Assembly (NCBI GenBank): GCA_963681965.1
Contig: OY820579.1
Span: 1,799,379 to 1,863,378 of the forward strand
Length of the DNA: 64,000 nt
Direction: 5' to 3'
From: a bacterium
Lineage (GTDB): Bacteria > Electryoneota > JAOADG01
Shown: positions 1 to 22,423 of the stretch, piece after piece
Numbering within the stretch: the first letter of the stretch is position 1
Layout of the letters: every line of letters begins with the position of its first letter
Notes under the pieces: model-generated
Told to the model about the DNA's origin: nothing
What the model saw: the letters and a program-made list of their open reading frames with translations, nothing else
Databases searched by the model: none
Translations under genes and position numbers: made by a program

Positions 1-755
1 GTCCTTATTCACTCGATTATATCAAGCAGTTCGATCCCGACTTTTTGGAACTGAACGGCGATCGTGGATTTCGCAATGACCGTGCGGTTGTCGGCGGACT
101 GTGTAATATCGACGGTATCCCGGTGATGGTGATCGCTCAGCAAAAAGGGCGAGGAACCAAAGAAAACCTACTTCGCAATTTCGGTATGAGTCATCCGGAA
201 GGGTATCGTAAAGCGATGCGCTTGATGAAAGTTGCGGAACGGTTCAGCGTACCGGTCGTTTCGTTGATCGATACTCCTGGTGCTTATCCCGGTATCGGCG
301 CTGAAGAGCGTGGTCAAGCAGAAGCAATTGCCCGCAATCTATTCGAGATGATCAATCTCAAGACACCGACTATTACGGTGATCATCGGCGAAGGCGGTAG
401 CGGTGGCGCTTTGGCTTTAGCTGTCATGGATCGCGTTCTAATGATGGAATTCGCGATCTATTCGGTGATATCACCCGAAGGGTGCGCATCGATTTTGTTC
501 CGTGACAGCTCGCAAGCAGAAAAAGCTGCGGAAAATCTAAAAATCACTGCCAATGATCTGGAGTCTCTCGGTGTAATCGATGAAATCATTCCAGAACCGT
601 TGGGTGGTGCTCACCGTGACTATTCGACTGCTGCCATCAACGTTCAGAAAGCGATCGGACGTAATCTCCGCGAGTTGATGGCGATCCAAAATCCCGATTG
701 GCAGCAAATGCGCATCGAGAAATATTCAAAGATGGGAGTATTTACGGTTGACTGA
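1..755 (+). CDS. accA: acetyl-CoA carboxylase carboxyltransferase subunit alpha (5' end outside window; in-frame from nt 3)
   Basis: Translation ...LDYIKQFDPDFLELNGDRGFRNDRAVVGG...GGSGGALALAV... matches the AccA carboxyltransferase core; the reading frame is open back to the window edge. Confidence 0.9.
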   Translation, partial: PYSLDYIKQFDPDFLELNGDRGFRNDRAVVGGLCNIDGIPVMVIAQQKGRGTKENLLRNFGMSHPEGYRKAMRLMKVAERFSVPVVSLIDTPGAYPGIGAEERGQAEAIARNLFEMINLKTPTITVIIGEGGSGGALALAVMDRVLMMEFAIYSVISPEGCASILFRDSSQAEKAAENLKITANDLESLGVIDEIIPEPLGGAHRDYSTAAINVQKAIGRNLRELMAIQNPDWQQMRIEKYSKMGVFTVD

Positions 756-1215
756 ACCGTGGATCATTACCACCTCAGTCCGGGTACGTTACGCCGACAC
801 CGATAAAATGGGTGTAATGTATTATGGGCGCTATATGGAATTGTTCGAAGTCGGTCGTACCGAATGGATTCGCGCCTGTTGGCGACCTTATGTCGAAATC
901 GAACGTGAAGGTGTTTTACTGCCGGTAGTGCATGCTGCAGCGACCTACCGGCAGAGTTTTCACTATGATGATCTAATCCAGATCCGGACTTTCCCAGTCG
1001 GAATACAGAAAGCTAGAATTAGATTTGGATATGAACTATTTGGTGATAACGATCAGCAACCGCGAATTATCGGTCTAACTGAACACGCTTTTGTCGATGA
1101 ATCCGGTAAGACCGTCAGAATACCGAGTAAATTGGCGCAGCTACTATCCGGGCGCGTTCCCGAGCAGTTAACGAAATTCGATTTACGCGACCATCTGTTG
1201 TCTTCGAACGGGTGA
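748..1215 (+). CDS. acyl-CoA thioesterase, YbgC/4HBT hotdog family
   Basis: TTG start overlapping the accA stop; N-terminus VRVRYADTDKMGVMYYGRYMELFE is typical of hotdog-fold thioesterases; 155 aa. Confidence 0.75.
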   Translation: MTEPWIITTSVRVRYADTDKMGVMYYGRYMELFEVGRTEWIRACWRPYVEIEREGVLLPVVHAAATYRQSFHYDDLIQIRTFPVGIQKARIRFGYELFGDNDQQPRIIGLTEHAFVDESGKTVRIPSKLAQLLSGRVPEQLTKFDLRDHLLSSNG

Positions 1216-1313
1216 AACAAACTAATTTCTGGAACATCTTAGCCCTAGCGACGTTGAATGTGAAGATAACAGTGTTTCGAATCACTTTTTCTGTGAATTG
1301 ACTATCCAACGCT

Positions 1314-1342
1314 CTTGACAATGCGTAACACCAAATGTAGAT
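1314..1342 (+). promoter_or_regulatory. candidate sigma70-like promoter (TTGACA-17nt-TAGATT) upstream of the porU operon
   Basis: TTGACA at 1314-1319 and TAGATT at 1337-1342 with a 17-nt spacer; if this is an FCB-type organism the promoter consensus may differ. Confidence 0.25.
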
Positions 1343-1438
1343 TGTATCATATTATTGGAGAATGCCCTTAGCACCTTGCGACCGAACTAGGTTTGGCTAA
1401 ATATAACCTGATCGACAACTCTGTCGATCACAGTTGTG

Positions 1439-1460
1439 CCGAACCTTGGGTTCGGTTTTT
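1439..1460 (+). terminator. hairpin plus T-run (ccgaacc-ttg-ggttcgg-ttttt) 20 nt upstream of the porU start; leader terminator or attenuator-like
   Basis: Perfect 7-bp GC-containing stem followed by TTTTT, read directly from the sequence. Confidence 0.35.
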
Positions 1461-1480
1461 CGTTTGTTTGGAGAGATGGA

Positions 1481-4400
1481 ATGCGGTGGTTTTCGGTATT
1501 AATCTTCATTTTAATAACCAGTTCGTTTGCAAGTTCAAGGTTGCCTTCGAATACGCTTCCACTTGCCGGAGTGGCGCTCCGAGTCTCGACTTATGAACAA
1601 CTCGATTTCACCGTTTCCAGTGATATTGTGAATCGGGAATCGAAACCGGGATCTTGGAAAGTGAAAGCGATTGATGGAACCTACCGGGTCGATCGAAATG
1701 GTCTGAAACATCCAGCGAAATTAGTATGGATTGCCGTTCCTCCCGGAAAACGGGTTCAGTTGACCTCGATAAAACCACAATCGACTTCATATCTGTCGGG
1801 TACGCTCGAACCTGCAATCTCCGATACGGCTAGGTCTGACTTGTTACGCGCTATGACTGGATCGAATTGGATTGAAATTGGAGAGCTGAATACTTTGCTG
1901 GGACATACTGTTGTGCCAGTATATATCATGTTTGCCGTTCAAAATGGCAATAGTATTGCGTACTCCAGCAACATCGCTGTTTCACTGCGGTTTGTTGACA
2001 TTACTTCGACACAATCCGTCGATCGAACACAATTGGCGCCGCTTCCCGATTATATTTTGAATCATTCGACGGCGAACAGATGGCGAACCTCGCGATCTTC
2101 AATCATGTCGCTAACTCAAACATCAACTGTTGCCCCGATAGGACCACTGTACCGAATTTCAACCAATTCCGAGGGAATTACTGAAATCACAGGAGCGGAA
2201 TTACAGCGAGCCGGAATCAATCTATCCCAAATCGATCCTCTTTCAATTAGATTATTGAGTAATTCGGCAAAGCCATTGGATGAAGCGTTGACAGCGGCGT
2301 TAAAAGAACCGTGGAATGAAATTGCAATTCTTGTGGAAGACGGAAACGACGGTAGATTCGATCCAACCGATCGCATCTTGTTTTACGGTGAATCCACATA
2401 CGGTTGGTCCCGGAACTCTAATTCAACTTTCAGCCATTGGTTATCTCCATATACGCGCAAAGCGACTTATTTTCTCGATTTGAATCAAGGTGGATTACCC
2501 GGTCGCAGAATGTCATCACTCCCATCTGCCAACGATGAATTACTGGTGACCACAGCTATTGGTCGCTACCTTCGCGAAGACGATTTAAGCTGCTTTGCCA
2601 ATGCATCATTCACTACCTCCGGAACACGATGGGTGGGTCCGTTATTGACGAATACCTCGGATATCATTCTGACTTTGCCACTTGCCGGCGCAGTTGCTTC
2701 ACCTACCGGTATCGTAAAATTTTCTTCTCGGTGGGTATCAACCGATAATCTTTATCCATCCAATGGAAGATTTCTTTTGAACGGAACGCAATTCGACGCA
2801 TCATCGTTTTCCTATTACGATATTGTGATCAATAATCAGGCGAGCGCTTCGTTATTGCATGAGGGAGCGAATCAATTTACTGCGCGGAAAACGGGGAGCC
2901 ACGATTTTTACTTCGACTGGTTGGAAGTTGAATATCCCCGCGATTTGACCATGCGGAATGGAAAGTTATTTGCCGATGTAACTATCGGATCGAAATATCG
3001 GGTGAACATCACCACCACGACGCTTCCCTATGTATTCGAGGTTTCGAATCGCGATAGTGTTCGATGGATTCACAATAAGAGCTTTGCCGATTCTGGATCT
3101 TCATTACAGTATCGCCGCTACGTGGCATTCGACGAAGATGCCTTTTTACATGTAGTATCGATCGACCCCGCACGTTTTGGTGGTGAAGATTACTCCTATC
3201 TTCGGGACACAACATTATCGGCAGATTATTTATTGATCTACGATGACGATTATCACGATCCCGCCAAGAAATTGCGCGATTACCGGATCTCACATAATTC
3301 GGTTGATGCGAAGATGATCCGAATTCAGGATATTTACGATTGTTTCTCCGGGGGGAATGTCGATCCTGTCGCGATTAGGAATTTTCTTCGGTATACCGTC
3401 ACCTCTTGGTCGCGTTCTCATTCGATTCCCAAATATGTCATGTTATTCGGCGATGGCGACTACGATTATCGTGGAATTCTTCAACCGAATACTAATCGAC
3501 CGATTCCGGCATACGAAATCAGTACTTATGCCACGGACGATTATTTTACCAGATTGACTGGTTCGACTGCATTACCCGAAATGATATCTGCACGCTTACC
3601 GCTCCAAACGCCCCGACAGATGGATGCTTGGGTAGATAAATTGATGACCTACGAAACACAGCCGGTACCCGGAACATGGCGGAATAAAATCGTTTTATGT
3701 GCCGATGATGAGTATGGACAAGGCGGAACCTATGATGCATTTGAGCAAACCCATACCGAAAAAACCGAAGATATTTCCCGACGACTGATTCCAAATACAT
3801 ACGAGCAAGTGAAAATATACCTACTTGAATATCCTGCAATCGTCGATCCAGTTCAATTAGCAAATGTCAAACCGGAAGCAAATGCCGCATTATTGACCGA
3901 ACTCGAGCGCGGTGCTTTGATGGTGAATTGGATCGGGCATGGCAATCCGCGAGTTTGGGCGCACGAGCAATTGTTGCGTGAAAGTCGCGATTTAAACCGG
4001 ATTAATACCGGGATGAAACTGCCACTTTGGCTGGGTTTCACTTGCGATTGGGCTTACTGGGACGATGCCGCGGTTCAAAGTATGCCGGAAAAATTGTTAG
4101 GCTTATCGAACAATGGAGCGCTGGCGGTCGTTGCAGCAACTCGACCAACTGGTGCCGATCCCAATGAAATTTTAGCCGATTACTTTTTCCGGGCAATACT
4201 GGACACATTGCAGCATCCCCACCGGTCGATTGCCGAAGCGCTGACATTGGCAAAAGTCCAATCGGGAACCGATGCCCCGTATTCTCGCGCCAATTCCAGT
4301 TTATATACCTCGCTATGCGATCCGTTGACACGATTGGCATTGCCGGAATACGATATCGGAATCGATTCGATAACTCCATCGCCGATTACCCCATTGGCTC

Positions 4401-5383
4401 GCTCAATGACCCATGGTAAAGTAGTAATACAAGATGGATCCAGTCTTAGCGATGGTCAACTTACCGTCACATTGCGCAGTTCGCCATTGAAGCGAGTACA
4501 TCATTGGGATGATGATCCATCGAATTCAGCCATAACTTATTTCAAACCGGGAAGATTGCTGTTCCGAGGTACGACGACATTGACGGATACTAGTTTCCGA
4601 ACCCCATTATTGTTGCCGCTTGATGTTACCTATAATGACAGCGCAACTGCTTATGCTTATGCGAACGGTAGTTGGGGTGCGGCATCGGGAATTCTGATCA
4701 ATCAACGCACCGATTCGGTTTGCGCGAATTTACGCGATACGATTCCGCCTGCGATAAAGCTTTTTATTAACAATCGAGAATTTCGTAGCGATGATATTGT
4801 GAATGACAACCCGATTTTACTAGCCGATATCGTCGACTCCAGTGGTGTAAATTTGACCGGTGAAATCGGACATCGTATTATTGCAACGATTGACGGCAAG
4901 GATCTGGATTTTACCGAACAATTCGCCTACATGAACAATCAAGTCACCAAGGGAACGGTAGAATCGCCACTAGGCTTCCTCGATCCGGGCAAACATCACT
5001 TGCGACTGGTTGCCTTTGATGGTGCTAATAATCCCGGAGTCGCCGTGATTGATTTCGAAGTTGCCTCGACCTCTTCGGAGTTATCGGTGCGGAATCTGTT
5101 GAACTATCCGAATCCAATCAGTGGAAACACGGCTTTTACGTTCGAATGTTCCGTTGCCGGAACGGCTTCGATCGATATTTATTCAATACACGGTACAAAA
5201 ATCCGGTCAATATCTAGTTTCCCGATTCACATCGGGTACAACTATCCTTCGGAGGCGACATGGGATGCACGCGATAAAGATGGCGTGGATGTTGCCAACG
5301 GGGTTTATCTATGGCGACTAAAAGCGAAAGCCGACGATGGACGATCGGTGGATGCTACCGGTCGCGCAGCGGTTTTACGATAA
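1481..5383 (+). CDS. porU: PorU-like peptidase C25 family protein with T9SS C-terminal domain (candidate T9SS C-terminal signal peptidase)
   Basis: ATG at 1481 preceded by a GGAGAG RBS; signal peptide MRWFSVLIFILITSSFASS; C25-like candidate catalytic dyad (WIGHGN ... LGFTCDWAY); C-terminal ~90 aa resembles a T9SS CTD (NYPNPISGNTAFTF...GVYLWRLKA); located immediately upstream of porV, as in Bacteroidota. Confidence 0.7.
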   Translation: MRWFSVLIFILITSSFASSRLPSNTLPLAGVALRVSTYEQLDFTVSSDIVNRESKPGSWKVKAIDGTYRVDRNGLKHPAKLVWIAVPPGKRVQLTSIKPQSTSYLSGTLEPAISDTARSDLLRAMTGSNWIEIGELNTLLGHTVVPVYIMFAVQNGNSIAYSSNIAVSLRFVDITSTQSVDRTQLAPLPDYILNHSTANRWRTSRSSIMSLTQTSTVAPIGPLYRISTNSEGITEITGAELQRAGINLSQIDPLSIRLLSNSAKPLDEALTAALKEPWNEIAILVEDGNDGRFDPTDRILFYGESTYGWSRNSNSTFSHWLSPYTRKATYFLDLNQGGLPGRRMSSLPSANDELLVTTAIGRYLREDDLSCFANASFTTSGTRWVGPLLTNTSDIILTLPLAGAVASPTGIVKFSSRWVSTDNLYPSNGRFLLNGTQFDASSFSYYDIVINNQASASLLHEGANQFTARKTGSHDFYFDWLEVEYPRDLTMRNGKLFADVTIGSKYRVNITTTTLPYVFEVSNRDSVRWIHNKSFADSGSSLQYRRYVAFDEDAFLHVVSIDPARFGGEDYSYLRDTTLSADYLLIYDDDYHDPAKKLRDYRISHNSVDAKMIRIQDIYDCFSGGNVDPVAIRNFLRYTVTSWSRSHSIPKYVMLFGDGDYDYRGILQPNTNRPIPAYEISTYATDDYFTRLTGSTALPEMISARLPLQTPRQMDAWVDKLMTYETQPVPGTWRNKIVLCADDEYGQGGTYDAFEQTHTEKTEDISRRLIPNTYEQVKIYLLEYPAIVDPVQLANVKPEANAALLTELERGALMVNWIGHGNPRVWAHEQLLRESRDLNRINTGMKLPLWLGFTCDWAYWDDAAVQSMPEKLLGLSNNGALAVVAATRPTGADPNEILADYFFRAILDTLQHPHRSIAEALTLAKVQSGTDAPYSRANSSLYTSLCDPLTRLALPEYDIGIDSITPSPITPLARSMTHGKVVIQDGSSLSDGQLTVTLRSSPLKRVHHWDDDPSNSAITYFKPGRLLFRGTTTLTDTSFRTPLLLPLDVTYNDSATAYAYANGSWGAASGILINQRTDSVCANLRDTIPPAIKLFINNREFRSDDIVNDNPILLADIVDSSGVNLTGEIGHRIIATIDGKDLDFTEQFAYMNNQVTKGTVESPLGFLDPGKHHLRLVAFDGANNPGVAVIDFEVASTSSELSVRNLLNYPNPISGNTAFTFECSVAGTASIDIYSIHGTKIRSISSFPIHIGYNYPSEATWDARDKDGVDVANGVYLWRLKAKADDGRSVDATGRAAVLR

Positions 5384-5405
5384 TGGAATCAATACGGAGG
5401 ATTGC

Positions 5406-6452
5406 ATGAAACGACTACTGATTTCAGTGCTAATGGGAATGATTGCACTGTTGATCTGCGCCCAGGCTTATGCCGGAGTTTCGGAAGCTGCGGCATTATT
5501 CCTGAAAATTTCCCCGGGTGCCCGGTACGGTGGCATGGGTGAAGCCGGTGTTGCACTGACCGACGATGCCAGTGCGACGTGGTGGAATCCCGCCGGACTC
5601 GGATTTCAGAACCAGCGACAGATTACTATGATGCACGCAAATTGGTTGCCGCAGTTCCATCTTCCCGACCTATACTACGACTTTATTTCGTACGTGCACA
5701 CTGTTCCTGAAGTAGGAACATTCGGTGGTCAGATTATCTTCCTCAATTTGGGAACTTCGACCAGAACCGATGAAGTCGGTAACGAACAGGGAACATTCTC
5801 GACCTACGAAGGGGCATTGGGAGCTTCCTACGGTACGCAACTTAATCAGCAGACTGCGCTCGGTATCAGTTTTAGAGTGATTTACTCGCATCTATCCGAT
5901 CGTGGCGCTGGTGCTGAAAAAGGTTCCGGGAGCGCAACCGGAGTTGGAGTCGATGTCGGCGTAATCCATAAGGCGAAGTTTCTCAAGGGTCTTCAGTACG
6001 GTGCGAACTTGTCGAATATGGGTCCGAAAATTTCCTATATCGATGCCGCTCAAGCCGATCCCATTCCGACCAATTTGAAATTAGGCGTTGCATATCACTT
6101 ACTCGATACCGAATTCAACAAAGTAACATTTGTAGCCGATGTCGATAAGGAACTGGTTCGCAAATACAGTGATGGTACATCCGATCCATTTTATGTAGCA
6201 TTGGTTACTAGTTGGACTGATGAGCCATTGATTCAGGAAATGATTTATCACGTTGGCGCTGAATATTGGTATACGAATTTGGTCGGATTGCGGATGGGCT
6301 ACTGGAACGACCAACAAGGTAAAGTCAAACCATTGACGTTCGGTGCTTCGCTGCAATATTCGGTCTATCGTTTCGATTTTAGCTATGTTTCCGCCGGTGA
6401 AGGACATCCTTTGACCGATACAATGCGCTTCTCGCTATCGATTGGTCTCTAA
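5406..6452 (+). CDS. porV: PorV/LptO-family outer membrane beta-barrel (T9SS shuttle protein)
   Basis: GGAGG RBS then ATG at 5406; signal peptide MKRLLISVLMGMIALLICAQAYA; conserved PorV N-terminal motif GARYGGMGEAGVALTDDASATWWNPAG; FadL-like barrel pattern; adjacent to porU. Confidence 0.75.
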   Translation: MKRLLISVLMGMIALLICAQAYAGVSEAAALFLKISPGARYGGMGEAGVALTDDASATWWNPAGLGFQNQRQITMMHANWLPQFHLPDLYYDFISYVHTVPEVGTFGGQIIFLNLGTSTRTDEVGNEQGTFSTYEGALGASYGTQLNQQTALGISFRVIYSHLSDRGAGAEKGSGSATGVGVDVGVIHKAKFLKGLQYGANLSNMGPKISYIDAAQADPIPTNLKLGVAYHLLDTEFNKVTFVADVDKELVRKYSDGTSDPFYVALVTSWTDEPLIQEMIYHVGAEYWYTNLVGLRMGYWNDQQGKVKPLTFGASLQYSVYRFDFSYVSAGEGHPLTDTMRFSLSIGL

Positions 6453-6504
6453 TCGATGAACGATCCTAACAACGCTGTCGGCACATCTACAAGGACGGAT
6501 TGCA

Positions 6505-9500
6505 GTGACTAATCGATTGTACTTAATAGCGGGTTTGATTGCGGTACTGGTTTCGGTTTCGGTGGCAGTATCTACTCCACTAAAACCGTTATTTCGAGGA
6601 GTGAAGTCCGGTTCCGATTTCAAATCGCGGTCGATTGTCAGCTTGCGTCCGACGATGCGGATTCTCGCAATTCGTGTCGATTTTCCACGCGATACCATTT
6701 CGACTACGACCGGTGATGGTGGTTTCGATTTTGGAAATCGCGAAGGACGCAAAATCGATCCGCCTCCACATGACAGCAGTTATTTTCAAGATCAGTTCAA
6801 ATTTGTCGATCACTATTTTCGACAAGTTTCGGGAAACCGATTGTCGATGGAGGCTACGGTTTTTCCCTCCGGCAATCGTATTGCTTACCGAATGTCTGAG
6901 CCGATTTGGCATTATCATCCCGATCCTGCCGACAACGACTTGACCAATCAACGGATTACCGAATTGTGGCGGGAAGCATGGAACGCCGCGGGTCAAGATC
7001 CCAATGTTCACTTTTATACTGTGAGTGGGACTGATACCATTCCTAATTACGACCTCTATGTTGTTTTGCATGCCGGTTCTGGAAATGAATACGATTTAGG
7101 GTATGACGATACTCCGTTCGACATCCCTTCGGGATTCATGACCAAAGCTGATTATTCAAAATATTTATCCATAACCAATCCCCGTGGATTACCCATAACG
7201 ACTTCTGACGGTGGCACCTTCTACATCCCGGAAGGTGCCTTACTGCCGGAGATGTCGTCGCAGAAAACCGGTTCCGAATGGATCGATATCGGAGTCGGAG
7301 GTCTTTATACATTTTTACTCGGTCGATCGATCGGTATGCCGTTCCTGTACGATGTCGACAAGGGAACCTCGCGAGTTGGACGGTGGAGCCTGATGGATCG
7401 TGGATTCGGAACGTTTTTCGGTATTCTTCCCGGATATCCCGACGCCTATACTCGAATGCGGATGGGCTGGGTACAACCAGTTCCAGCACCCGATACCGGC
7501 ATCGTGGAACTTCGAATTCCGCAGGATACACTCCATCCCACGCTGCCTGAAGTCATGCGGTTCGAAGGTGCCGGCGACGAATATTATCTGATGGAAGCCC
7601 GGAATCGCGATCCTGATTCGGTGAAATGTGCTTATGTCTATGATGTTGCCGGACATCGTGCCAAACTGACCGATCAATATGAAATCGAACTTGATACCTC
7701 ACTCGCTAATTCATTTGGCGTGATCGTTCGTGCCGATAATTACGAATTCGATACACCCGGTAGTGGAGTGCTCGTTTGGCGCGTGAATGCTGCTGAAGAG
7801 CGACGTCGTACCGCGTTGAATATCCCTTTCCAAACCGGTTCTATACCGTATGTTTTGAAATTAATCGAAGCCGATGGTTCCGAGGATTTCGGTCAGAATT
7901 ACGATATGTTTTCACCCGGGAGTGGTACTGAAACCGGATCTCCCTACGATGCATTTTTCCGGAATAATACCGAATGGTCGCATGCCAATGGCGACGATGG
8001 CGCAGTTCGCTTTTCACGCGAAGTAAATCCCCCGGCAATCACTTCGAATGGTGCGCCACTACAGTTTACACTTGGGCAATTCTCTTCAGTTGGTTGGACG
8101 ATGTCCTTCCGGGTTTATCGAAATTCGAATCAACTGGAAGGCGAGAAACGGTTCCGGATTTCGCCGTCGAAGTCACCCGTCGTAGCAATTCCCTTTGATG
8201 TGAACAACGACCGCTTCGATGAAGTTTGGATTGCCGACAGTAATGCCATTTACGGACTTACTACCGATGGAAATTGGATCGGCACCGACACAATCCGATT
8301 CGTAACGCACGATCAGACCACAGGTGCGATGCTGGATTCGATTGCTTCGCCGGCACTATTCCACTTCGACGGTCCTCCGATTCGGAAAATGGTCTTTCAT
8401 AACGCTTCCGGATCGTTGCGAATATTAGCCTATCGATGTTATGCCGATGGTAGCGGAAAACGATTGACAGATTATGCTTGCACACTGCCAATTTCCGGAG
8501 CAGTGTCGTTATCGCAACATTCGATCGATCTACCGGGAGCAGTGACTACACTTGCTTGCGACGAAACCAGTAATCAGTGGATTGTTGGATTGAGTGATTA
8601 TGCAATTGTACGCGATTCGATCCGGACCAATCCACAATTAGTAATGACGTTTATCAATCGATCTTATCATCTCGATATTCTGAATCCGAGTGGCACAGAT
8701 CTCGAATTTCCACTCCCATCGGATCTATCGGGAAATCCGGAAATCTTTGGTTTAAACTCTACTGTTCCGCTGGCAGGTGTTGGAAATCGATTATACCGGT
8801 ATTCCGGAACGGAATGGTCCCTTGATCCTTCGTTTTCGATGGTCGCCGATTCGATTAAAGCGATTGGCTGGACAAGTGAAAACGCTGTTGTTATTACTCG
8901 CAACCAGTGGCTATTAACCAATGGTAAATCGCTTCGAACCGGATTTCCGCGCAGATTGCCATCCTCTTCAGCGCCAATATCTTTGGTGGCTGCCAAGACA
9001 ACACAAACCGATCCGGTAATCTGGTACGGCACCGAAACCGGTGAATTATGGAAATTGTATCGTGATCGAGTGGATCGCAATTATCCGATTGCGATCGGTA
9101 TTCAACCCGTGGACGGTTTGGTTTTGTTGACTGCTCATCATATACCTACTGCTCCGGATTCGGTGCGATTGGCAGCGGTGTCTCGCGATGGTGTGGTTTT
9201 TTTGACGACTTTACCCTTATCGGATGTTGAAGCGGCTACTTGGGCAGCCCCTGCCGGTACCGGCTCCGGATTACCGAATTCTACTCCCGAACGGGATTGG
9301 TCGGTGATGTACGATAACGGTCTCTCGTATGCATTCGTATGGCCCAATCCGATCAAGGGGAATCAGGGATTTGTCCGGGTAGGGTCAAATCAAGCCGGAA
9401 TGTCCCAAGCCAAAGCCGAAGTATTCGACGTTATCGGAGAGCGAATCGCGACACTACATAATCCCTATCCAGTAGAAGGGGGCGGGTACGAATGGCGCTG

Positions 9501-9594
9501 GGATGTTTCTTCAGTCTCGCGTGGTTTGTATATCGTTCGCGTTCAAGTTCCCGGTGCTCCGGTTAAAATGATCAAAGCAGCGGTGGTAAAATGA
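6505..9594 (+). CDS. M6 (immune inhibitor A)-like pseudo-metallopeptidase with T9SS C-terminal sorting domain
   Basis: GTG start after an AAGGACGGA RBS; signal peptide; M6-like landmarks are LAIRVDFPRD, HAGSGNE, GRWSLMDRG and YTRMRMGW, but the HEXXH position reads FLLGR; C-terminus PNPIKGNQGFVRV...GLYIVRVQVPG is a type-A T9SS CTD. Confidence 0.6.
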   Translation: MTNRLYLIAGLIAVLVSVSVAVSTPLKPLFRGVKSGSDFKSRSIVSLRPTMRILAIRVDFPRDTISTTTGDGGFDFGNREGRKIDPPPHDSSYFQDQFKFVDHYFRQVSGNRLSMEATVFPSGNRIAYRMSEPIWHYHPDPADNDLTNQRITELWREAWNAAGQDPNVHFYTVSGTDTIPNYDLYVVLHAGSGNEYDLGYDDTPFDIPSGFMTKADYSKYLSITNPRGLPITTSDGGTFYIPEGALLPEMSSQKTGSEWIDIGVGGLYTFLLGRSIGMPFLYDVDKGTSRVGRWSLMDRGFGTFFGILPGYPDAYTRMRMGWVQPVPAPDTGIVELRIPQDTLHPTLPEVMRFEGAGDEYYLMEARNRDPDSVKCAYVYDVAGHRAKLTDQYEIELDTSLANSFGVIVRADNYEFDTPGSGVLVWRVNAAEERRRTALNIPFQTGSIPYVLKLIEADGSEDFGQNYDMFSPGSGTETGSPYDAFFRNNTEWSHANGDDGAVRFSREVNPPAITSNGAPLQFTLGQFSSVGWTMSFRVYRNSNQLEGEKRFRISPSKSPVVAIPFDVNNDRFDEVWIADSNAIYGLTTDGNWIGTDTIRFVTHDQTTGAMLDSIASPALFHFDGPPIRKMVFHNASGSLRILAYRCYADGSGKRLTDYACTLPISGAVSLSQHSIDLPGAVTTLACDETSNQWIVGLSDYAIVRDSIRTNPQLVMTFINRSYHLDILNPSGTDLEFPLPSDLSGNPEIFGLNSTVPLAGVGNRLYRYSGTEWSLDPSFSMVADSIKAIGWTSENAVVITRNQWLLTNGKSLRTGFPRRLPSSSAPISLVAAKTTQTDPVIWYGTETGELWKLYRDRVDRNYPIAIGIQPVDGLVLLTAHHIPTAPDSVRLAAVSRDGVVFLTTLPLSDVEAATWAAPAGTGSGLPNSTPERDWSVMYDNGLSYAFVWPNPIKGNQGFVRVGSNQAGMSQAKAEVFDVIGERIATLHNPYPVEGGGYEWRWDVSSVSRGLYIVRVQVPGAPVKMIKAAVVK

Positions 9595-12500
9595 AGCGAA
9601 CGACTGCCTACTCGATTTTAGGAATATCGCTCCTGCTGCTGATTGGAGTGGCGTTTGCGCAAGTAACTCCATTCAATCACGCTGAATTATTATGGCGAAC
9701 GATCGAAGGGAAGCACCACATCGTCCATTACCACGTCGGCGCTGAACGTACTGCTCAAATGATTTTGGATATTGCCGACGAAGTACATCAACCACTTGCC
9801 GATCTGTACAAATACGAACCGGATACGAAAGTCAACTGGGTCATTTACGATACCGACGATTATGCCAACGGCGCGACGTATTTCCTGAACAATCGCATCG
9901 TGATCTGGGCACCGGCACTCGATTTTGAATTTCGTGGTACGCATAATTGGCTTCGAAATGTTGTGACGCATGAATATACTCATATGATTCAACTCGGAGC
10001 TGCACGGAAGTGGTCGCGACAGATGCCGGCGATCTACGGACAGTATATCGGTTATGAACCGGAAACCCGACCCGATGTTCTGTATGGTTTCCCGAATCGG
10101 ATCATGAGTTACCCACTATCCAATACTACCGTTCCTCATTGGTTTGCCGAAGGAACAGCACAATCGATGCGCCGCGGAATGAATTACGATTATCGCGATA
10201 GCCACCGCGAGATGCTTCTTCGCTCTCGAGCGCTTGCCGACAATTTGTTGACGATGGATGAGATGGGTGTCTTCGAGAAGACTAGTCTTGGCGGCGAATT
10301 GGTTTACAACCAGGGATTTGCGTTAGTTCAATACATAATCGACCGGTTCGGTGAAACTGCTTTAAGAACACTATCTGAATCACTCGGGTCAATGTCGGTT
10401 TGGTCGTTCGATGCCGCGTGCCGGAAGACACTGGGTATACCGGCTCAGAAGCTTTACGATGAATGGGTTCGCGCGATGAAGGAAACCTATCGCGTGCGCA
10501 CTGAAACAATACGCCAGCACGAAGTGACCGGTCGATTGTTGGAAGAAGATGGCTTTGCTAATCTATATCCACGATGGTCGATCGACGGGAAAAAAATATA
10601 CTTTACCTCGAATAAGGAAAAGGATTATTTCGGTGGATCGTCGTTGGTCGAGATGAATCTTGCAACCGGTAAGAAAGAGAAGCTCGTCAAAACAATGGCA
10701 CCCTTTGCAGTTCACCCGAATGGCAAAGGATTGATCTATTCGGAACAACCGTTACAAAAGGGGCAGCGACGACTCGACGATCTATTCTTCTACGATTTTG
10801 CGAAGAAAAAATCCTACCGGCTGACTTATGCCGAACGTGCGCAACAACCCGATGTTTCATCGGATGGGAAAAAGATTGTCGCCGTCACGCAATCCGACGG
10901 AACGATGAATCTTGTCGTGTTTGAACTTCCCGATTCGATCAAAGCCGATGTGAAGCAAAAAGCACAACTGAAGAAACGAGTATTGACATCCTATGTCAAT
11001 GGCGAACAATTATCTCACCCTCGATTTTCACCTGACGGAAATAAAATTCTTTATTCTTTCGCACGCGAACAAAACCGCGATCTATTCGAATTCGATCTAA
11101 CGACAAATACTTCCACGCTACTGCGCGCGAGTAAATGGGATGACCGCGACGTCGCATGGTCAAAAGATGGTCAGTGGATCTATTTTTCCAGCGACTCAAC
11201 TGGTATCTGGAATATTTACCGGATGCGTAGCGATCGCACAATCATCGAACCGGTGACGAATGTTGTCGGCGGTGCTCTGCTCGGTGAACCATCGCCGGAT
11301 GGTGCGAAATTGGCATTCTGTCGATACGAATCGACCGGCTATAAGTTAGCATTATTGGATAAAATCGAACCAGTCGATCGAGCATACATGCAGTATCAAC
11401 AGAACTATGCTCAATCGCTGCCGAATGTGTCGATACCCGATTCGATGCCACCGGCGAAACCAGTCATGAAATACAAACCGGCATTCGAGAAAACCTATAT
11501 TCTTCCGCGAATTGCTTGGGATTACGGTCGTTTCAAACCCGGTTTCTATGTCTATACGAACGATTATCTGGAAAAATTGAACCTGTTCGGTGGCTTTGCG
11601 ATTAATGGTAAGAAGGACTACGACTTGTATTTGTCGACCGACTACCGACAACTTCCACCGACGTTGTTCATGGACTTTTACAATATCGTCCGTCACGACG
11701 ATAAACGATTCGATGATCCGCTCCGAATTGTTGGTCAATCCGGTCACGGTGATTCAGCCCAACCGATTTATGCACAATATGGAACAAAATATAAGTTCAC
11801 GTTGCTCGAATTGGATATCGGTTTCCGGTACAATATCGATGAGAAGACTGTTGCCAGTTTGTATGGTATGTTCTCGCGCTACAGTGCGGCACTAGATTTC
11901 GACGACGGTTCATCATCGTTTGGTTACACGTATTTCAAAGGTCACAGTCTTGTCGCTTCGCTTACGCAAACCGCAATTACGCGCAGTGTAACCGATGACA
12001 TCAATCCGTCCGGTGGTTATCAATTCGGAATTCGGGCGCAACGCTCGCAGCACAATTACATCCAAGGGTTCACCATCAACGCCGATAAACTGACACTGCA
12101 GGAAGTCTATTCACCCTACAATTACTGGCAGTTGGAAGGATCGTTTAATTATTATCAGAAGCTCTGGCATAAATGGGTGATGTCGCCGTCGGTTAAACTT
12201 GGTTATATCGATCGTAACGTCGATCCATTCATGAATCTTTATGCCGGTGGTTTGTTCGGGATGCGCGGCTATTCGTTCTATAGTCTTGGTGGTACTCGCA
12301 CGACTATTGCACAACTAGCACAGGAACTCCCGTTGTGGGAGCCGATGGGCAAACGACAGTATCTCGGTTGGGTACATCCGATAAGCGTCTATGCCAATCT
12401 ATTCGCCGATGTCGGATCGGCATGGCGTGGCGATGTGCAACATGCAAAATGGGTGCGGGATTTGGGTGGTGAATTGCGGTTTGGTTCGATATCGGTATTC

Positions 12501-12677
12501 AGTTATCCTACCGCGATCACGTTGTCGGCAGCACGCGGATTAGACCGGGTATCGGTGACCGAAAACGACAATACGACCGTATATGCGCCCCAGTGGCGAT
12601 ATTACTTCACAATTTTATTTGGATTTACTCAACCGCCGACTGGAATACAACCAGCTCGTGCGATTGACCGGCAGTAA
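9591..12677 (+). CDS. fusion protein: peptidase-MA-like (HEYTH) domain + TolB-like PD40 beta-propeller + Omp85-family (BamA/TpsB-like) C-terminal beta-barrel
   Basis: ATGA overlap with the upstream gene; signal peptide; HEYTHM zinc motif at aa 127-131; six or more PD40-like blades (WSIDGKKIYFTS, FSPDGNKILYSF, WSKDGQWIYFSS, PSPDGAKLAF...); C-terminal ~450 aa of alternating beta-strand pattern with an Omp85 loop-6-like GGLFGMRGY motif and a beta-signal-like YYFTILFGF near the C-terminus. Confidence 0.55.
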   Translation: MKRTTAYSILGISLLLLIGVAFAQVTPFNHAELLWRTIEGKHHIVHYHVGAERTAQMILDIADEVHQPLADLYKYEPDTKVNWVIYDTDDYANGATYFLNNRIVIWAPALDFEFRGTHNWLRNVVTHEYTHMIQLGAARKWSRQMPAIYGQYIGYEPETRPDVLYGFPNRIMSYPLSNTTVPHWFAEGTAQSMRRGMNYDYRDSHREMLLRSRALADNLLTMDEMGVFEKTSLGGELVYNQGFALVQYIIDRFGETALRTLSESLGSMSVWSFDAACRKTLGIPAQKLYDEWVRAMKETYRVRTETIRQHEVTGRLLEEDGFANLYPRWSIDGKKIYFTSNKEKDYFGGSSLVEMNLATGKKEKLVKTMAPFAVHPNGKGLIYSEQPLQKGQRRLDDLFFYDFAKKKSYRLTYAERAQQPDVSSDGKKIVAVTQSDGTMNLVVFELPDSIKADVKQKAQLKKRVLTSYVNGEQLSHPRFSPDGNKILYSFAREQNRDLFEFDLTTNTSTLLRASKWDDRDVAWSKDGQWIYFSSDSTGIWNIYRMRSDRTIIEPVTNVVGGALLGEPSPDGAKLAFCRYESTGYKLALLDKIEPVDRAYMQYQQNYAQSLPNVSIPDSMPPAKPVMKYKPAFEKTYILPRIAWDYGRFKPGFYVYTNDYLEKLNLFGGFAINGKKDYDLYLSTDYRQLPPTLFMDFYNIVRHDDKRFDDPLRIVGQSGHGDSAQPIYAQYGTKYKFTLLELDIGFRYNIDEKTVASLYGMFSRYSAALDFDDGSSSFGYTYFKGHSLVASLTQTAITRSVTDDINPSGGYQFGIRAQRSQHNYIQGFTINADKLTLQEVYSPYNYWQLEGSFNYYQKLWHKWVMSPSVKLGYIDRNVDPFMNLYAGGLFGMRGYSFYSLGGTRTTIAQLAQELPLWEPMGKRQYLGWVHPISVYANLFADVGSAWRGDVQHAKWVRDLGGELRFGSISVFSYPTAITLSAARGLDRVSVTENDNTTVYAPQWRYYFTILFGFTQPPTGIQPARAIDRQ

Positions 12678-12708
12678 CAAAACGACGCGTTAACAGGAGG
12701 TAGTAAGA

Positions 12709-13626
12709 ATGTGGTATAAATTAATCATTTTGGTTTTAGCGTTGTGTTCGATTTCCTTCGCGATACCGTACAAGGAAGCGGATAATTCCGATAATATGCA
12801 ACCATTACCGAAGTCACTCAGTCAACTTCAGCATGAGCGCGAAATCAAACTGGTGGCAGCGATGGAAAGTGGTGCCCCAACCGATTCGACAACTGCTGCT
12901 CCGGTAAAAGGTCCGAATATGGGCAAAGCGATGTTGTTATCGGCGATCATGCCCGGAACCGGTCAACTCTACATCGGAAGCAAATGGAAAGGGTATACTT
13001 TCCTAGGAATCGAAGCCGCTGCTTGGACAATGGCAATCATGTACAATGTCAAAGGCAACCAAACAACGAAAGATTTTCAGAATTATGCCGAATCCCACTG
13101 GGGTGTAAACGAATCCTTATATCGCCAAAAGGAATTCTATTACGCGACATTGAATAGTCTCCCCTCGCGAATTTCTTCGACACCTTATCAGGGAACCCGT
13201 GCCGATTGGGATTTATTGAGCTGGGATGACAAATCGAAATATTTACCATCGAACTTCACCCACGAACTGCCGTCATCGCATAATCAGCAATGGTACGAAA
13301 TGATTGGTAAGTATTTGACGCAATTCGGTCCCTTCTGGGATGACGCCGATACTTCGTCTTCGGCATACAGTGCGACCGGCGTTTGGTCAGGATCCAGTAC
13401 AACTGCCAATAAATACGCCGACAAACGATATGATGCGAACAAGCAATTGAAAGCCGGAAATACAATGTTCATGGTTGTAATGATCAATCACGTATTGTCC
13501 GCAACGGACGCTGTATTATCGGTTAAAGCGATGAACAATCGAACCGTCCAAACTGCCGTTCGATTGGAACAGCGAAGCTTCAACAATGAAGTAGTCACGA
13601 TGCCAACACTTCATATTACGTTCTGA
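12709..13626 (+). CDS. secreted hypothetical protein, paralog A (PG-x-GQ motif family, DUF5683-like)
   Basis: AGGAGG RBS; signal peptide ...CSISFA; motifs SAIMPGTGQLY + hydrophobic GIEAAAWTMAI and C-terminal VMINHVLSATDAV shared with the next ORF. Confidence 0.55.
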   Translation: MWYKLIILVLALCSISFAIPYKEADNSDNMQPLPKSLSQLQHEREIKLVAAMESGAPTDSTTAAPVKGPNMGKAMLLSAIMPGTGQLYIGSKWKGYTFLGIEAAAWTMAIMYNVKGNQTTKDFQNYAESHWGVNESLYRQKEFYYATLNSLPSRISSTPYQGTRADWDLLSWDDKSKYLPSNFTHELPSSHNQQWYEMIGKYLTQFGPFWDDADTSSSAYSATGVWSGSSTTANKYADKRYDANKQLKAGNTMFMVVMINHVLSATDAVLSVKAMNNRTVQTAVRLEQRSFNNEVVTMPTLHITF

Positions 13627-13628
13627 CA

Positions 13629-14264
13629 ATGAAACGACTCTATCTGGTAATTTTTTCTGGATTGATTGCGCTGACGTCGTTTGCGCAACCGCTCCCGCGT
13701 CCGAAAGCACCTACCGGTTCAACGGTATTTTTCAAGTCGCTGTTGTTACCGGGATGGGGGCAGATGTCGCAGGGAAGACCAAAAGAGGCTACAATTTTCC
13801 TGTCATCCGAAGCGATCCTAATTGTTACTACATTTGGTTTGCAAACCTACGGTGATTGGCTCAAAAGCGACTATCGATCGGTAGCAGCGCTCTATGCCGG
13901 GATCCCGAATGGCGGTAATCGGAACCATACAATGTATGTCGATATGGGAAATTGGAATACCGTGGAAGAATTCAATGCTGCACGACAACGCGATCGCGAA
14001 TATGATCGACAATATTTGAAAGCCGAGGATCAGTGGCGCTGGACGAATGATTCCGAACGAAGGCGTTTTAAAGCGCTTCGTTTGAAATCGGATAAAGTAT
14101 TGGAATCGGTTAAATTCTCGATCGGTGCGGTAGTCGTCAATCATTTTATTGCCGCAATTGAAGCATCAGCATTCGAACGTAAGAAAGTGAAAAACCCGTC
14201 GATCGGTGTCACGATGTCGGGAACAACGAGCGAACCACAGGTTCGACTTCATGTGAATTGGTAA
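13629..14264 (+). CDS. secreted hypothetical protein, paralog B (PG-x-GQ motif family, DUF5683-like)
   Basis: Starts 2 nt after the paralog A stop; signal peptide ...LTSFA; motifs SLLLPGWGQM + SSEAILIVTTF and C-terminal VVNHFIAAIEASAF. Confidence 0.55.
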   Translation: MKRLYLVIFSGLIALTSFAQPLPRPKAPTGSTVFFKSLLLPGWGQMSQGRPKEATIFLSSEAILIVTTFGLQTYGDWLKSDYRSVAALYAGIPNGGNRNHTMYVDMGNWNTVEEFNAARQRDREYDRQYLKAEDQWRWTNDSERRRFKALRLKSDKVLESVKFSIGAVVVNHFIAAIEASAFERKKVKNPSIGVTMSGTTSEPQVRLHVNW

Positions 14265-14281
14265 ACTTCTGTTACGCGGAA

Positions 14282-14318
14282 AACGGGCAACTCGTCTGAG
14301 TTCGCCCGTTTTTTTTCG
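14282..14318 (+). terminator. intrinsic terminator closing the porU operon
   Basis: acgggcaactc...gagttcgcccgt stem followed by TTTTTTTT. Confidence 0.7.
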
Positions 14319-14371
14319 AAGAACATATCAATCAGGATTGACGGGAACAGTGAATTCGGTTACTTTTTAGT

Positions 14372-15259
14372 ATGAAGAGACGAATCTTAATAACGGGTGC
14401 ATCCGGATATCTTGGGGGGCATCTAGTTCTCACTGCTCCACAGGATTGCGAGTGTTTCGCTATGTACCGGTCGGCTCGACCTGAAAGCGATTTTGGTGCT
14501 CATTGGATTCAGGGCGATTTAATCGATGCTTCGCTTCCACATCAGCTAATCCGGGATATTCGACCCGATGCGATTATTCACAATGCCGCCTTATCGAAAC
14601 CGGAAGAATGCGACGACAATCCCGATCTTGCCAATGAAATCAATATCGAAGCTACCGATCGTCTAGCTACTGTGTCCGATCAGACCAGTACCCGCTTTAT
14701 ATTTTTGTCTACCGATATGGTTTTCGATGGGAATCATCCCCCATATACCGAGTCATCCCTGCCAAACCCCATTCACCGCTATGGAATTACCAAAGTTACT
14801 GCTGAACGTCGAATTGCGAATAGATCGGATAAACATGCAATTGTACGTTCTTCCGTGATCTTCGGACCACAAGGGATCTTCAATTCCAATTTTGCCATGC
14901 ATCTGATTGACCACTGGCAACTCGGCGAGCCGACCAATGTATTTGTCGACCAATTCCGAAATCACGTATCGGTGAAATGGTTGTGTCAAGCCTTGTATGA
15001 ACTGACCGAATCCGCTTTCTCCGGGATCTTGCATCTTGGTGGCGGGGAATCGACGAGTCGAGCCGAATTTGCCCACTGTCTCGCGAAACGCTTGAATTAT
15101 CCCGACCAATTGTTGACTGAAACCTCTTTAGTTGGTAAGTTGCTTGCGCCTCGACCTCGAGATTTAACGTTCGATGTGCAATTAGCCAGATCGGTTTTGA
15201 AAACTTCACCGCTCACACTGGCGCAAGGTATTGCGTTGGAGTGGGCACAAATACTGTAA
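14372..15259 (+). CDS. rfbD: dTDP-4-dehydrorhamnose reductase-like SDR (RmlD family)
   Basis: ILITGASGYLG Rossmann motif; STDMVF and YGITK motifs match the RmlD STDYVF/YGxTK; 295 aa. Confidence 0.7.
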   Translation: MKRRILITGASGYLGGHLVLTAPQDCECFAMYRSARPESDFGAHWIQGDLIDASLPHQLIRDIRPDAIIHNAALSKPEECDDNPDLANEINIEATDRLATVSDQTSTRFIFLSTDMVFDGNHPPYTESSLPNPIHRYGITKVTAERRIANRSDKHAIVRSSVIFGPQGIFNSNFAMHLIDHWQLGEPTNVFVDQFRNHVSVKWLCQALYELTESAFSGILHLGGGESTSRAEFAHCLAKRLNYPDQLLTETSLVGKLLAPRPRDLTFDVQLARSVLKTSPLTLAQGIALEWAQIL

Positions 15260-15263
15260 TGCC

Positions 15264-15923
15264 ATGACACCTATCGACTTATCAGCAACACAGCCCTATC
15301 TAGCGCTTGCCGGCAATATTGGCGTGGGAAAAACGACCATGACGACCCTACTGGCATCGAAATTGCGTTGGGATCCATGGTTCGAACCGGTCATCGACAA
15401 TCCTTATCTCGACGACTTTTACGCCGATATGCATCGCTGGAGTTTCCATCTCCAAATCTACTTTCTCTCGAAAAGATTCGAAGCGCAACGGCGCATCCTC
15501 GATAATTCGCGACCCTCTGTACAGGATCGAACAATCTATGAAGATGTCGAGATCTTTGCTCGAACGCTACACAAACAGAAGTTTATGACTGATCGCGAAT
15601 ACGAAAACTACTCTTCGCTATTCTCTTGTATGATGGAGTATCTAAGACCACCGGATGCAATTGTATATCTACGCGCTCCGGTAGAGGTTTTGCTGGATCG
15701 AATTTCAAAACGCGGTCGCGACTCCGAGAAGACTATTGCCAGATCATATTTGGAGGAATTGAATAACGCCTACGAAAGCTGGATCGAACGTTCAAAAGAT
15801 CTAACTCAGGTGTTAATCTTCGATACTGCCATTTTCGACAATGAAGGTGCAGATGCACTTTCAGATCGAATTATCAGTACGTTACGTGCAAGTCCACAAT
15901 TATCATTCCTGCCATTTGCCTGA
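15264..15923 (+). CDS. deoxynucleoside kinase (dAK/dGK/dCK family)
   Basis: P-loop GNIGVGKTT; motifs FEPVIDNPYLDDFY, RWSFHLQIYFL, DRTIYED typical of the dNK family. Confidence 0.8.
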   Translation: MTPIDLSATQPYLALAGNIGVGKTTMTTLLASKLRWDPWFEPVIDNPYLDDFYADMHRWSFHLQIYFLSKRFEAQRRILDNSRPSVQDRTIYEDVEIFARTLHKQKFMTDREYENYSSLFSCMMEYLRPPDAIVYLRAPVEVLLDRISKRGRDSEKTIARSYLEELNNAYESWIERSKDLTQVLIFDTAIFDNEGADALSDRIISTLRASPQLSFLPFA

Positions 15924-16047
15924 TCATTCCCAATCAGGCTGAACTTTTTGTAATTTAGATCTAGGTGTTGCAGCACACGTGCGATTAGTCGTAATCGTCA
16001 CGCTGTGCTGTGTTACTATTCAAAACAACATTAGGTGGTTATTTATT

Positions 16048-22338: not shown

Positions 22339-22359
22339 CAGGATCAACATGAATTTGAA

Positions 22360-22388
22360 AAAGCAGGCGAAAAGCCTGCTTTTTTGTT
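22360..22388 (+). terminator. intrinsic terminator (agcaggc-gaaa-gcctgct + TTTTTTG)
   Basis: Perfect 7-bp stem, GAAA tetraloop, T6 run. Confidence 0.75.
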
Positions 22389-22423
22389 GTATCTTATGGT
22401 TTAACAAGAATAGAAATTCACTG

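Follow-up and report, generated by a model that had tools for sequence, protein, structure and literature searches.

We analyzed a 64,000-nucleotide stretch of contig OY820579.1 (positions 1,799,379 to 1,863,378; hereafter, the window) from the assembly GCA_963681965.1 of a bacterium of Electryoneota, and focused on the gene cluster around porU and porV, which encode the sortase and the outer-membrane shuttle of a type IX secretion system (T9SS). The open reading frame (ORF) map showed six consecutive genes on the forward strand (1481–14264), ending at a strong terminator (14282–14318); all window features described below lie on this strand. The first gene, porU (1481–5383), encodes a T9SS sortase of 1300 amino acids (aa) with a C25 peptidase domain and its own C-terminal sorting domain (CTD), and the second, porV (5406–6452), encodes a FadL-like outer-membrane shuttle barrel of 348 aa. 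The remaining genes, referred to as g3 to g6, encode a 1029-aa T9SS type-A CTD protein with an inactivated M6 domain (g3; 6505–9594; GTG start), a 1028-aa fusion protein (g4; 9591–12677), a 305-aa DUF5683-like protein (g5; 12709–13626), and a shorter, 211-aa paralog of g5 without the central insert (g6; 13629–14264). The gaps read at the successive junctions were 22, 52, −4, 31, and 2 nt, the negative value being an ATGA overlap of the g4 start with the g3 stop. The source contig is metagenome-assembled (4.34 Mb; ENA ERZ21878129), and an independent public gene call for it contained the same six genes. In nearly all members of the Fibrobacteres–Chlorobi–Bacteroidetes (FCB) group that were sampled outside the Bacteroidia, the partner genes accompany porV, and we interpret the cluster, with a probability of about 55%, as encoding an extended T9SS attachment and outer-membrane module comprising PorU, PorV, and four partner proteins.

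The first two products were assigned by profile searches. PorU scored 618.8 bits against NF033707 (T9SS_sortase), above the curated cutoff of 420, and matched Pfam Peptidase_C25 with an E value of 4e-74. PorV scored 283.2 bits against NF033709 (PorV_fam; cutoff, 90), which models the PorV/PorQ subfamily, and 95 bits against Pfam PorV (cutoff, 27). Its score against the equivalog NF033710 was 210.6 bits versus a cutoff of 250, and the syntenic ortholog in locus L080 reached 267.5. Assignment to the paralogs PorU2 and PorV2 was rejected (141 and 58 bits versus cutoffs of 450 and 325), and a literature match for "PorV2" turned out to be a citation artefact. The window porV was also rejected as BamG, given that the PorV models score far higher and that porU adjoins it. 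A hydrophobic, signal-like N-terminal segment begins each of the six proteins.

The g3 product comprises an InhA-like M6 domain (residues ~43–543) and a CTD (residues ~945–1029), and its homologs have an FG-GAP/VCBS-type propeller in the middle and also carry a Por_Secre_tail domain. Alignment columns and the hidden Markov model (HMM) alignment to InhA showed that FLLGR (residues 270–274; 7312–7326) replaces the zinc motif HExxH, at the position where InhA-type relatives have HEFGH. Nearly all cluster-linked homologs are motif-less too, and HEFGH or HEYGH is retained in the distant homologs P0199, P0201, and P0203. A profile of 35 g3 homologs matched InhA (PDB ID: 4yu5; E value, 7e-9), and its C-terminal part matched the CTDs of PorU (PDB ID: 6za2) and PorZ (PDB ID: 5m11), which were the most similar among solved structures. 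The Por_Secre_tail match of the window g3 was weak (E value, 7e-4; 20.3 bits versus a cutoff of 27). Within the family, the PNP and G-x-Y columns of the CTD are invariant and most homologs match PF18962; these features and the matches to the PorU and PorZ CTDs identify a type-A sorting domain.

The g3 family is already known: NCBI has a curated model for it (NF052323) under the name "T9SS-dependent M6-like inactivated metalloprotease". The window g3 scored 276 bits against this model, short of the cutoff of 600, with the match covering residues 43–543 (E value, 6e-82). Syntenic orthologs scored 1013 (L080, Kryptonia), 885 (L076, Ignavibacteria), 540 (L055, KSB1), and 395 (L002, Caldithrix), the full-length cutoff being passed by those of Kryptonia and Ignavibacteria. 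Only five g3 homologs exceeded 45% identity. Judged by synteny, g3 is best described as a fast-evolving, divergent ortholog of the curated family and not as a model-level member: it resembles the family in the M6 region and in the loss of HExxH, and matches it in the N-terminal half only. The family name is silent on Omp85 or DUF5683 partners.

The g4 product combines a signal peptide, a gluzincin-like domain (residues ~30–310), a TolB-like propeller (~315–590), and an Omp85-type barrel (~625–1010). Its AlphaFold2 model was confident (predicted local distance difference test score [pLDDT], 81.7; predicted template modeling score, 0.79) and showed an alpha/beta domain, a propeller, and a large barrel. 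The modeled barrel (11463–12620) superposed on those of BamA and TamA, as expected for a 16-strand-type fold, and contains the L6-loop motif YAGGLFGMRGY and the strand motif FADVGSAW. Profile alignment placed MRGY and FADVG on IRGY and FVDSG of TamA with invariant Gly and Tyr columns, so that counterparts of both Omp85 motifs, (V/I)RG(F/Y) in L6 and FxDxG, were found. The Pfam Omp85 model matched 10 of 31 g4 homologs and left the window g4 itself unmatched. Similarity in sequence to BamA and TamA is thus marginal, and the POTRA domains are replaced: Pfam detected none in the window g4 or the 31 homologs, and the model shows the gluzincin-like domain and the propeller in their place. The assignment of the propeller as TolB-like is in agreement with both its fold and its PD40 repeats.

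The gluzincin-like domain contains the zinc motif HEYTH (H127-E128-x-x-H131; 9969–9983), with E187 in WFAEG as the candidate third ligand. H127, E128, H131, W184, A186, E187, and G188 were invariant in the 31 homologs (37–72% identity), and the same HExxH/WxAEG residues were invariant in 16 further orthologs. Peptidase_MA_2 matched 29 of the 31 homologs (best E value, 1e-10), and the window g4 scored 25.6 versus a cutoff of 32.4. A comparison of the N-terminal domain profile with PDB sequences returned no relevant or solved relative, and no NCBIfam family covers the fusion. Unlike g3, g4 therefore appears to keep a complete gluzincin signature. Among the candidates scored, the g4 family amounted to 1649 clusters at 90% identity (E value ≤ 1e-5); the count at 50% identity (E value ≤ 1e-30) was 646 representatives, and at least 593 species-level genomes encode a relative.

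The g5 product has a signal-like N-terminus, a PGTGQ helix hairpin, strongly conserved polar motifs (FTHELP, QQYYEMIGKY, and NHVLSA), and a C-terminal beta-hairpin ending in Phe. It matched DUF5683 (PF18935) at 24.6 versus a gathering cutoff of 26.7, over positions 4–58 of the 151 in the profile; because this match lies below the cutoff, yet many g5 homologs carry a precomputed PF18935 match, we call the protein DUF5683-like. The Pfam scan gave no DUF5683 match for g6. The two proteins were linked to each other by BLASTP (E value, 3e-4), by iterated profiles that converged on the same 126 ORFs, and by an hhalign comparison of first- and second-position orthologs (probability, 99.8%; E value, 3e-29), all of which identify g5 and g6 as paralogs. 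The g5 model was helical with a C-terminal beta-hairpin (pLDDT, 82.5) and had no counterpart among solved structures. Both proteins contain moderately hydrophobic internal helices, and by prediction they are helical, possibly membrane-embedded, and not evident outer-membrane or surface proteins. The last residue is aromatic (Phe or Trp) in 38 of 44 g5-type and 29 of 44 g6-type orthologs; its position at the end of a predicted beta-hairpin resembles the beta-signal of outer-membrane proteins, although the rest of the protein is helical. HMM searches, motifs, and the g4 model thus bear out the gene content proposed in an earlier note on this DNA, namely PorU, PorV, a dead M6 CTD protein, an Omp85 fusion, and two PG-x-GQ paralogs. 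The same note ascribed outer-membrane or surface hallmarks to all partners, which holds for the CTD of g3, the barrel of g4, and the signal-like N-termini but not for the helical, possibly membrane-embedded g5 and g6.

To describe the conservation of gene order, we used two sets of loci. The g4-anchored set consisted of the 80 best species loci of the g4 family, searched with profiles of the six window proteins, with ratios referring to loci with enough flanking sequence; the PorV-anchored set consisted of 80 metagenome loci picked only by PorV similarity (40–67%). The g4-anchored loci were labelled Caldithrix/Calditrichota, KSB1, LCP-89, Electryonea, Delongbacteria, Ignavibacteria, and Kryptonia. 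In this set, g3 lay directly upstream of g4 in 74/75 loci, porV upstream of g4 in 56/57, and a g5-type gene downstream of g4 in 67/70. A second g5/g6 paralog was present in 46/61, the Ignavibacteria and Kryptonia types having only one, and porU, the least constant member, was found in about 40/51. Anchoring on PorV gave the same picture, with g4 following porV in 35/35 loci, g5/6 in 27/29, and g3 in 65/67, both exceptions to the last having less than 900 bp of flank. Both anchorings together, the gene order recurred in about 160 independent loci, and it was kept at 36–45% protein identity while the surrounding genes changed.

KSB1-type loci (L035, L037, L043, L049, L051, L055, L065, and L078) had porV-g3-g4-g5-g6 without an adjacent porU, and the core of the cluster is therefore porV-g3-g4-g5. 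Upstream of porV, L035 and L055 encode biotin carboxylase and glycine dehydrogenase; similarly sized ORFs occupy this position in several other KSB1-type loci, and L051 differs. Some Ignavibacteria-type loci with a single DUF5683-like gene have an extra gene between g3 and g4 (L072, 8538–9962; L077, 8541–9968; L058, 9268–9915; and similar loci), which encodes one of two products: a C25 peptidase of 475 aa that carries a T9SS CTD of its own and is a short PorU-like paralog, or a protein of ~216–255 aa that weakly matches FlgD_ig. Downstream of its g5 and g6, L068 contains another, partial g4-like ORF (6548–7609), and the g4 homolog of L070 (9980–13093) has no partner within 10 kb on either side. 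The earlier note regarded relatives with porUV but without the partners as evidence against a module, and the PorV-anchored loci showed the partners in place. Its description of the module as lineage-specific does not agree with the breadth of the g4 family or with the occurrence of the cluster in seven labelled groups, and porU, which it took as an anchor together with porV, is missing from the KSB1-type loci. Its statement that classical Bacteroidota loci differ was supported by the neighbours described for Porphyromonas gingivalis (PMC5445135) and Cytophaga hutchinsonii (PMC8564354).

The pairing of g3 and g4 also bears on a rather unlikely alternative, in which g3 is an ordinary T9SS cargo for surface binding or adhesion and g4 with g5/g6 is its cognate anchor or processing partner, so that one cargo is served. 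Type-B CTD proteins are known to be encoded next to, and anchored by, PorP/SprF-like barrels. In keeping with such an arrangement, g3 and g4 form the tightest pair of the cluster, with an ATGA overlap shared by the window and its closest relative, L166 (73% identity in g4), and with adjacency in 74/75 g4-anchored loci, and g3 evolves fast, as the small number of its close homologs indicates and as a surface protein might. Pairs of cargo and anchor genes are an established theme of the T9SS (PMC9143113). However, the CTD of g3 is of type A and not type B, the barrel of g4 is of the Omp85 and not the PorP/SprF kind, and the CTD of g3 is closest to those of the machine components PorU and PorZ. 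Moreover, g3 and g4 are single-copy and fixed beside porV across the labelled phyla, which is unusual for a cargo.

Distant high-GC lineages had a variant cluster (L082, 3211–20655; L083, 3743–20276; L084, 1–15786; L085, 3–8503). It starts with genes for PorU, PorV, an M6-like FG-GAP CTD protein, two DUF5683-like paralogs, and an NHL propeller protein, and in L082–L084 it ends with a conserved protein of ~1100 aa terminating in Phe and a POTRA-Omp85 protein of 560–624 aa. The ~1100-aa protein showed a faint match to SprA (E value, 6e-6). The M6-like proteins of L082–L084 have an intact HExxH (HEFGH or HEYGH); L085, a 9-kb contig ending after the propeller gene, carries the distant g3 homolog P0200. 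The variant and the window have in common PorU, PorV, an M6-like CTD protein, and the DUF5683-like pair, followed by a propeller and, in L082–L084, an Omp85 barrel. They differ in that the propeller of the variant is a separate NHL protein, its Omp85 barrel is a separate protein with POTRA domains, and the gluzincin domain of the window g4 is missing. The hhalign comparisons of g4 with the variant Omp85, NHL, and ~1100-aa proteins were not significant, and an origin of g4 by fusion of these genes is not claimed here. Components of the same kinds are thus found with PorU and PorV in two arrangements.

These data also bear on whether g4 to g6 form a general envelope-biogenesis unit, an Omp85/TAM-like (translocation and assembly module) or Tol-like system with a periplasmic protease, that is only syntenic or co-regulated with porUV-g3. 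The lack of a T9SS-specific domain in g4–g6 speaks for this possibility, as do the envelope-maintenance relatives of the gluzincin, TolB-like propeller, and Omp85 parts, the partnerless g4 of L070, and the occurrence of DUF5683-like N-terminal motifs in families of Leptospira, which lacks a T9SS (NF047756). It seems doubtful to us, as g4 followed PorV in every PorV-anchored locus that could be scored, the linkage outlasts the replacement of both flanks in KSB1-type loci, and Omp85 and DUF5683-like proteins pair again with PorU-PorV-M6 in the rearranged variant.

Sequence signals were in agreement with a common transcript. The terminator at 14282–14318 consists of a bulged 16-bp stem followed by T8 (−22.8 kcal/mol; z = −3.8); the consensus scan missed it because of the stem bulge. 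The terminator scan and folding found no internal hairpin comparable to it in the six-gene region, and the intragenic terminator-like sites had short stems (5–6 bp) and occurred at chance level (20 observed versus 15.5 ± 3.7 expected from shuffled sequence). L166 has a near-identical spacing pattern and, at the same position after g6, a hairpin with T5 whose sequence differs from that of the window (z = −3.9). A single transcription unit is plausible because of the tight spacing and the terminator after the sixth gene in L166. An operon is expected to have closely spaced genes on one strand, with a terminator behind the last of them and none in between, and on these features 1481–14318, a co-directional unit, is very probably an operon. 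The spacing and the terminator given in the earlier note were thus reproduced by the ORF map, the junctions, the public gene call, and folding.

Upstream of porU, the top sigma-70-like match of the promoter scan was a candidate site, TTGACA-17-TAGATT (1315–1343), both hexamers of which are kept in L166; sigma-70-like matches in the region, including those inside the cluster, were at chance level. A GC-rich leader hairpin, GCCGAACC-TTG-GGTTCGG followed by a T-run (1438–1462), ends 18 nt before the porU ATG (−13.8 kcal/mol for 1430–1475; z = −2.1). In L166 its stem is conserved and its loop is changed, and L008, L024, L026, L036, and L048 have similar hairpins no more than 50 nt upstream of porU. 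The leader hairpin may terminate the upstream thioesterase gene or serve as an attenuator. An Rfam scan of 1–16000, which included this hairpin, gave no match.

The view that the six genes are merely unrelated neighbours, separately transcribed and ordered by inherited synteny, is very improbable. It could draw on the promoter-like sites inside the region, though these occur at chance frequency, and on P. gingivalis, in which porU and porV are adjacent yet predicted to be transcribed independently (PMC5445135). The gaps of the window, on the other hand, leave scant room for promoters, no internal hairpin resembles the 3′ terminator, and the order is kept among diverged proteins despite changing surroundings. 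The linkage data argue against both this view and that of a general envelope unit.

Returning to the proposed attachment module, g3 would be exported by the T9SS and then retained on the surface, where it would bind without catalysis as a subunit whose CTD docks on PorV in a manner comparable to PorU and PorZ of P. gingivalis. The g4 product would reside in the outer membrane with its gluzincin domain and TolB-like propeller in the periplasm, as homology to the Omp85 topology suggests, and may serve the complex around PorV as its platform in the membrane, as an assembly factor, or as a protease for quality control. The g5 and g6 products may be membrane-associated accessory subunits of g4. Together, these proteins would make up an enlarged attachment complex, one that is absent from classical Bacteroidia or has been replaced there by PorQ/PorZ.

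Several points weigh against this proposal. It is gene order, and gene order only, that ties the partners to the T9SS, and g4, g5, and g6 carry no T9SS domain that we could recognise. For g3 of the window, the NF052323 score falls well short of the cutoff, and the CTD match is weak (E value, 7e-4). The periplasmic orientation of the N-terminal domains of g4 is a prediction from Omp85 homology, and g5 and g6 may be inner-membrane proteins, a location hard to reconcile with a complex confined to the outer membrane. Profile comparison gave no significant similarity between g4 and the variant cluster's Omp85 and propeller proteins. Finally, the flanks (accA and a thioesterase gene upstream; genes for a short-chain dehydrogenase/reductase [SDR] and a deoxynucleoside kinase downstream) are also conserved in closer relatives, and some of the adjacency therefore reflects shared ancestry.

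After the terminator, the window encodes an SDR/RmlD-like epimerase-reductase and then a deoxynucleoside kinase (14372–15923), the SDR gene starting at 14462 in the public gene call versus 14372 in ours. In about 20 species loci the SDR gene comes after g6, and in about 10 both genes do; these loci belong to several labelled phyla. No T9SS core gene was found among the ten large ORFs scanned between 18000 and 64000. These ORFs mostly encode housekeeping proteins, such as pyruvate:ferredoxin oxidoreductase, type III glutamine synthetase, CstA, aconitase, isocitrate dehydrogenase, and a tripartite ATP-independent periplasmic transporter, and two of them (36119–38182 and 22349–23842) had no Pfam match.

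We compared the cluster with classical Bacteroidia loci on the basis of PMC5445135 and PMC8564354. In P. gingivalis, T9SS genes other than porPKLMN are located among unrelated genes, and none of the adjacent genes encodes a cargo (PMC5445135); three small genes come after porV in C. hutchinsonii (PMC8564354). As for the PorU-PorV-PorQ-PorZ complex of P. gingivalis, its PorU and PorV genes are likewise adjacent and in the same order as in the window, where g3, next to them, encodes a further non-catalytic CTD protein with a propeller. Unlike that complex, the window has no PorZ or PorQ homolog in the locus and adds the Omp85 fusion and the DUF5683-like proteins. The g3 product matches PorZ in the CTD only, with a dead M6 domain and one FG-GAP-type propeller where PorZ has two propellers.

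A second comparison is with the BAM of Bacteroidota, in which the Omp85 barrel BamA binds the FadL-like BamG carrying surface proteins, lipoproteins such as BamH belong to the exposed subunits, and the periplasmic subunit BamP puts a loop at the lateral seam; the bamA locus of Flavobacterium johnsoniae also holds the T9SS genes porG and skpA (PMC12611786, PMC12578637). The window encodes an Omp85 barrel, a FadL-family barrel, predicted surface proteins, and propeller parts, kinds of components that the BAM complex also has, a likeness that we regard as analogy and not as membership. The FadL-like partner is PorV here and BamG there. Because PorV, like BamG, is a FadL homolog, a pairing of g4 with PorV is suggested by this analogy as a hypothesis.

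Carried further, this comparison would describe a T9SS attachment complex of most non-Bacteroidia FCB lineages built on an Omp85 barrel, a joint picture that we consider speculative and unlikely to hold in all its parts. In it, g4 would pair with PorV as BamA does with BamG, and PorU and the pseudo-protease g3 would form a CTD-held surface canopy. The periplasmic gluzincin domain and propeller of g4 might inspect or clear cargo or CTD fragments, and the DUF5683-like pair might regulate the barrel, for example with its conserved C-terminal beta-hairpin placed in the lateral seam, like BamP of F. johnsoniae. An ancestral Omp85 link would have been lost in Bacteroidia, or PorQ/PorZ would have taken its place there.

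The literature search found no paper on the cluster, on DUF5683, or on the NF052323 family, and neither the Omp85 fusion nor the DUF5683-like pair nor the conserved cluster itself seems to have been described; among the partner families, only the pseudo-protease family had been named. Knowledge of the T9SS comes almost entirely from a few Bacteroidia, in which porU and porV are found on their own and attachment requires PorQ and PorZ, encoded elsewhere. In about 160 sampled genomes with at least seven non-Bacteroidia FCB group labels, porV is fixed beside four further genes. One carrier locus, L003, is labelled Caldithrix abyssi, the Ignavibacteria-type carriers being metagenome-assembled genomes; cultured carriers thus appear to exist, and the predictions should be open to direct tests. 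If the partners are parts of the T9SS, the cluster would show that attachment and sorting can rely on a different architecture, ancestral or alternative; it would also add a new functional class to the Omp85 proteins and place DUF5683-like proteins in a functional context for the first time.

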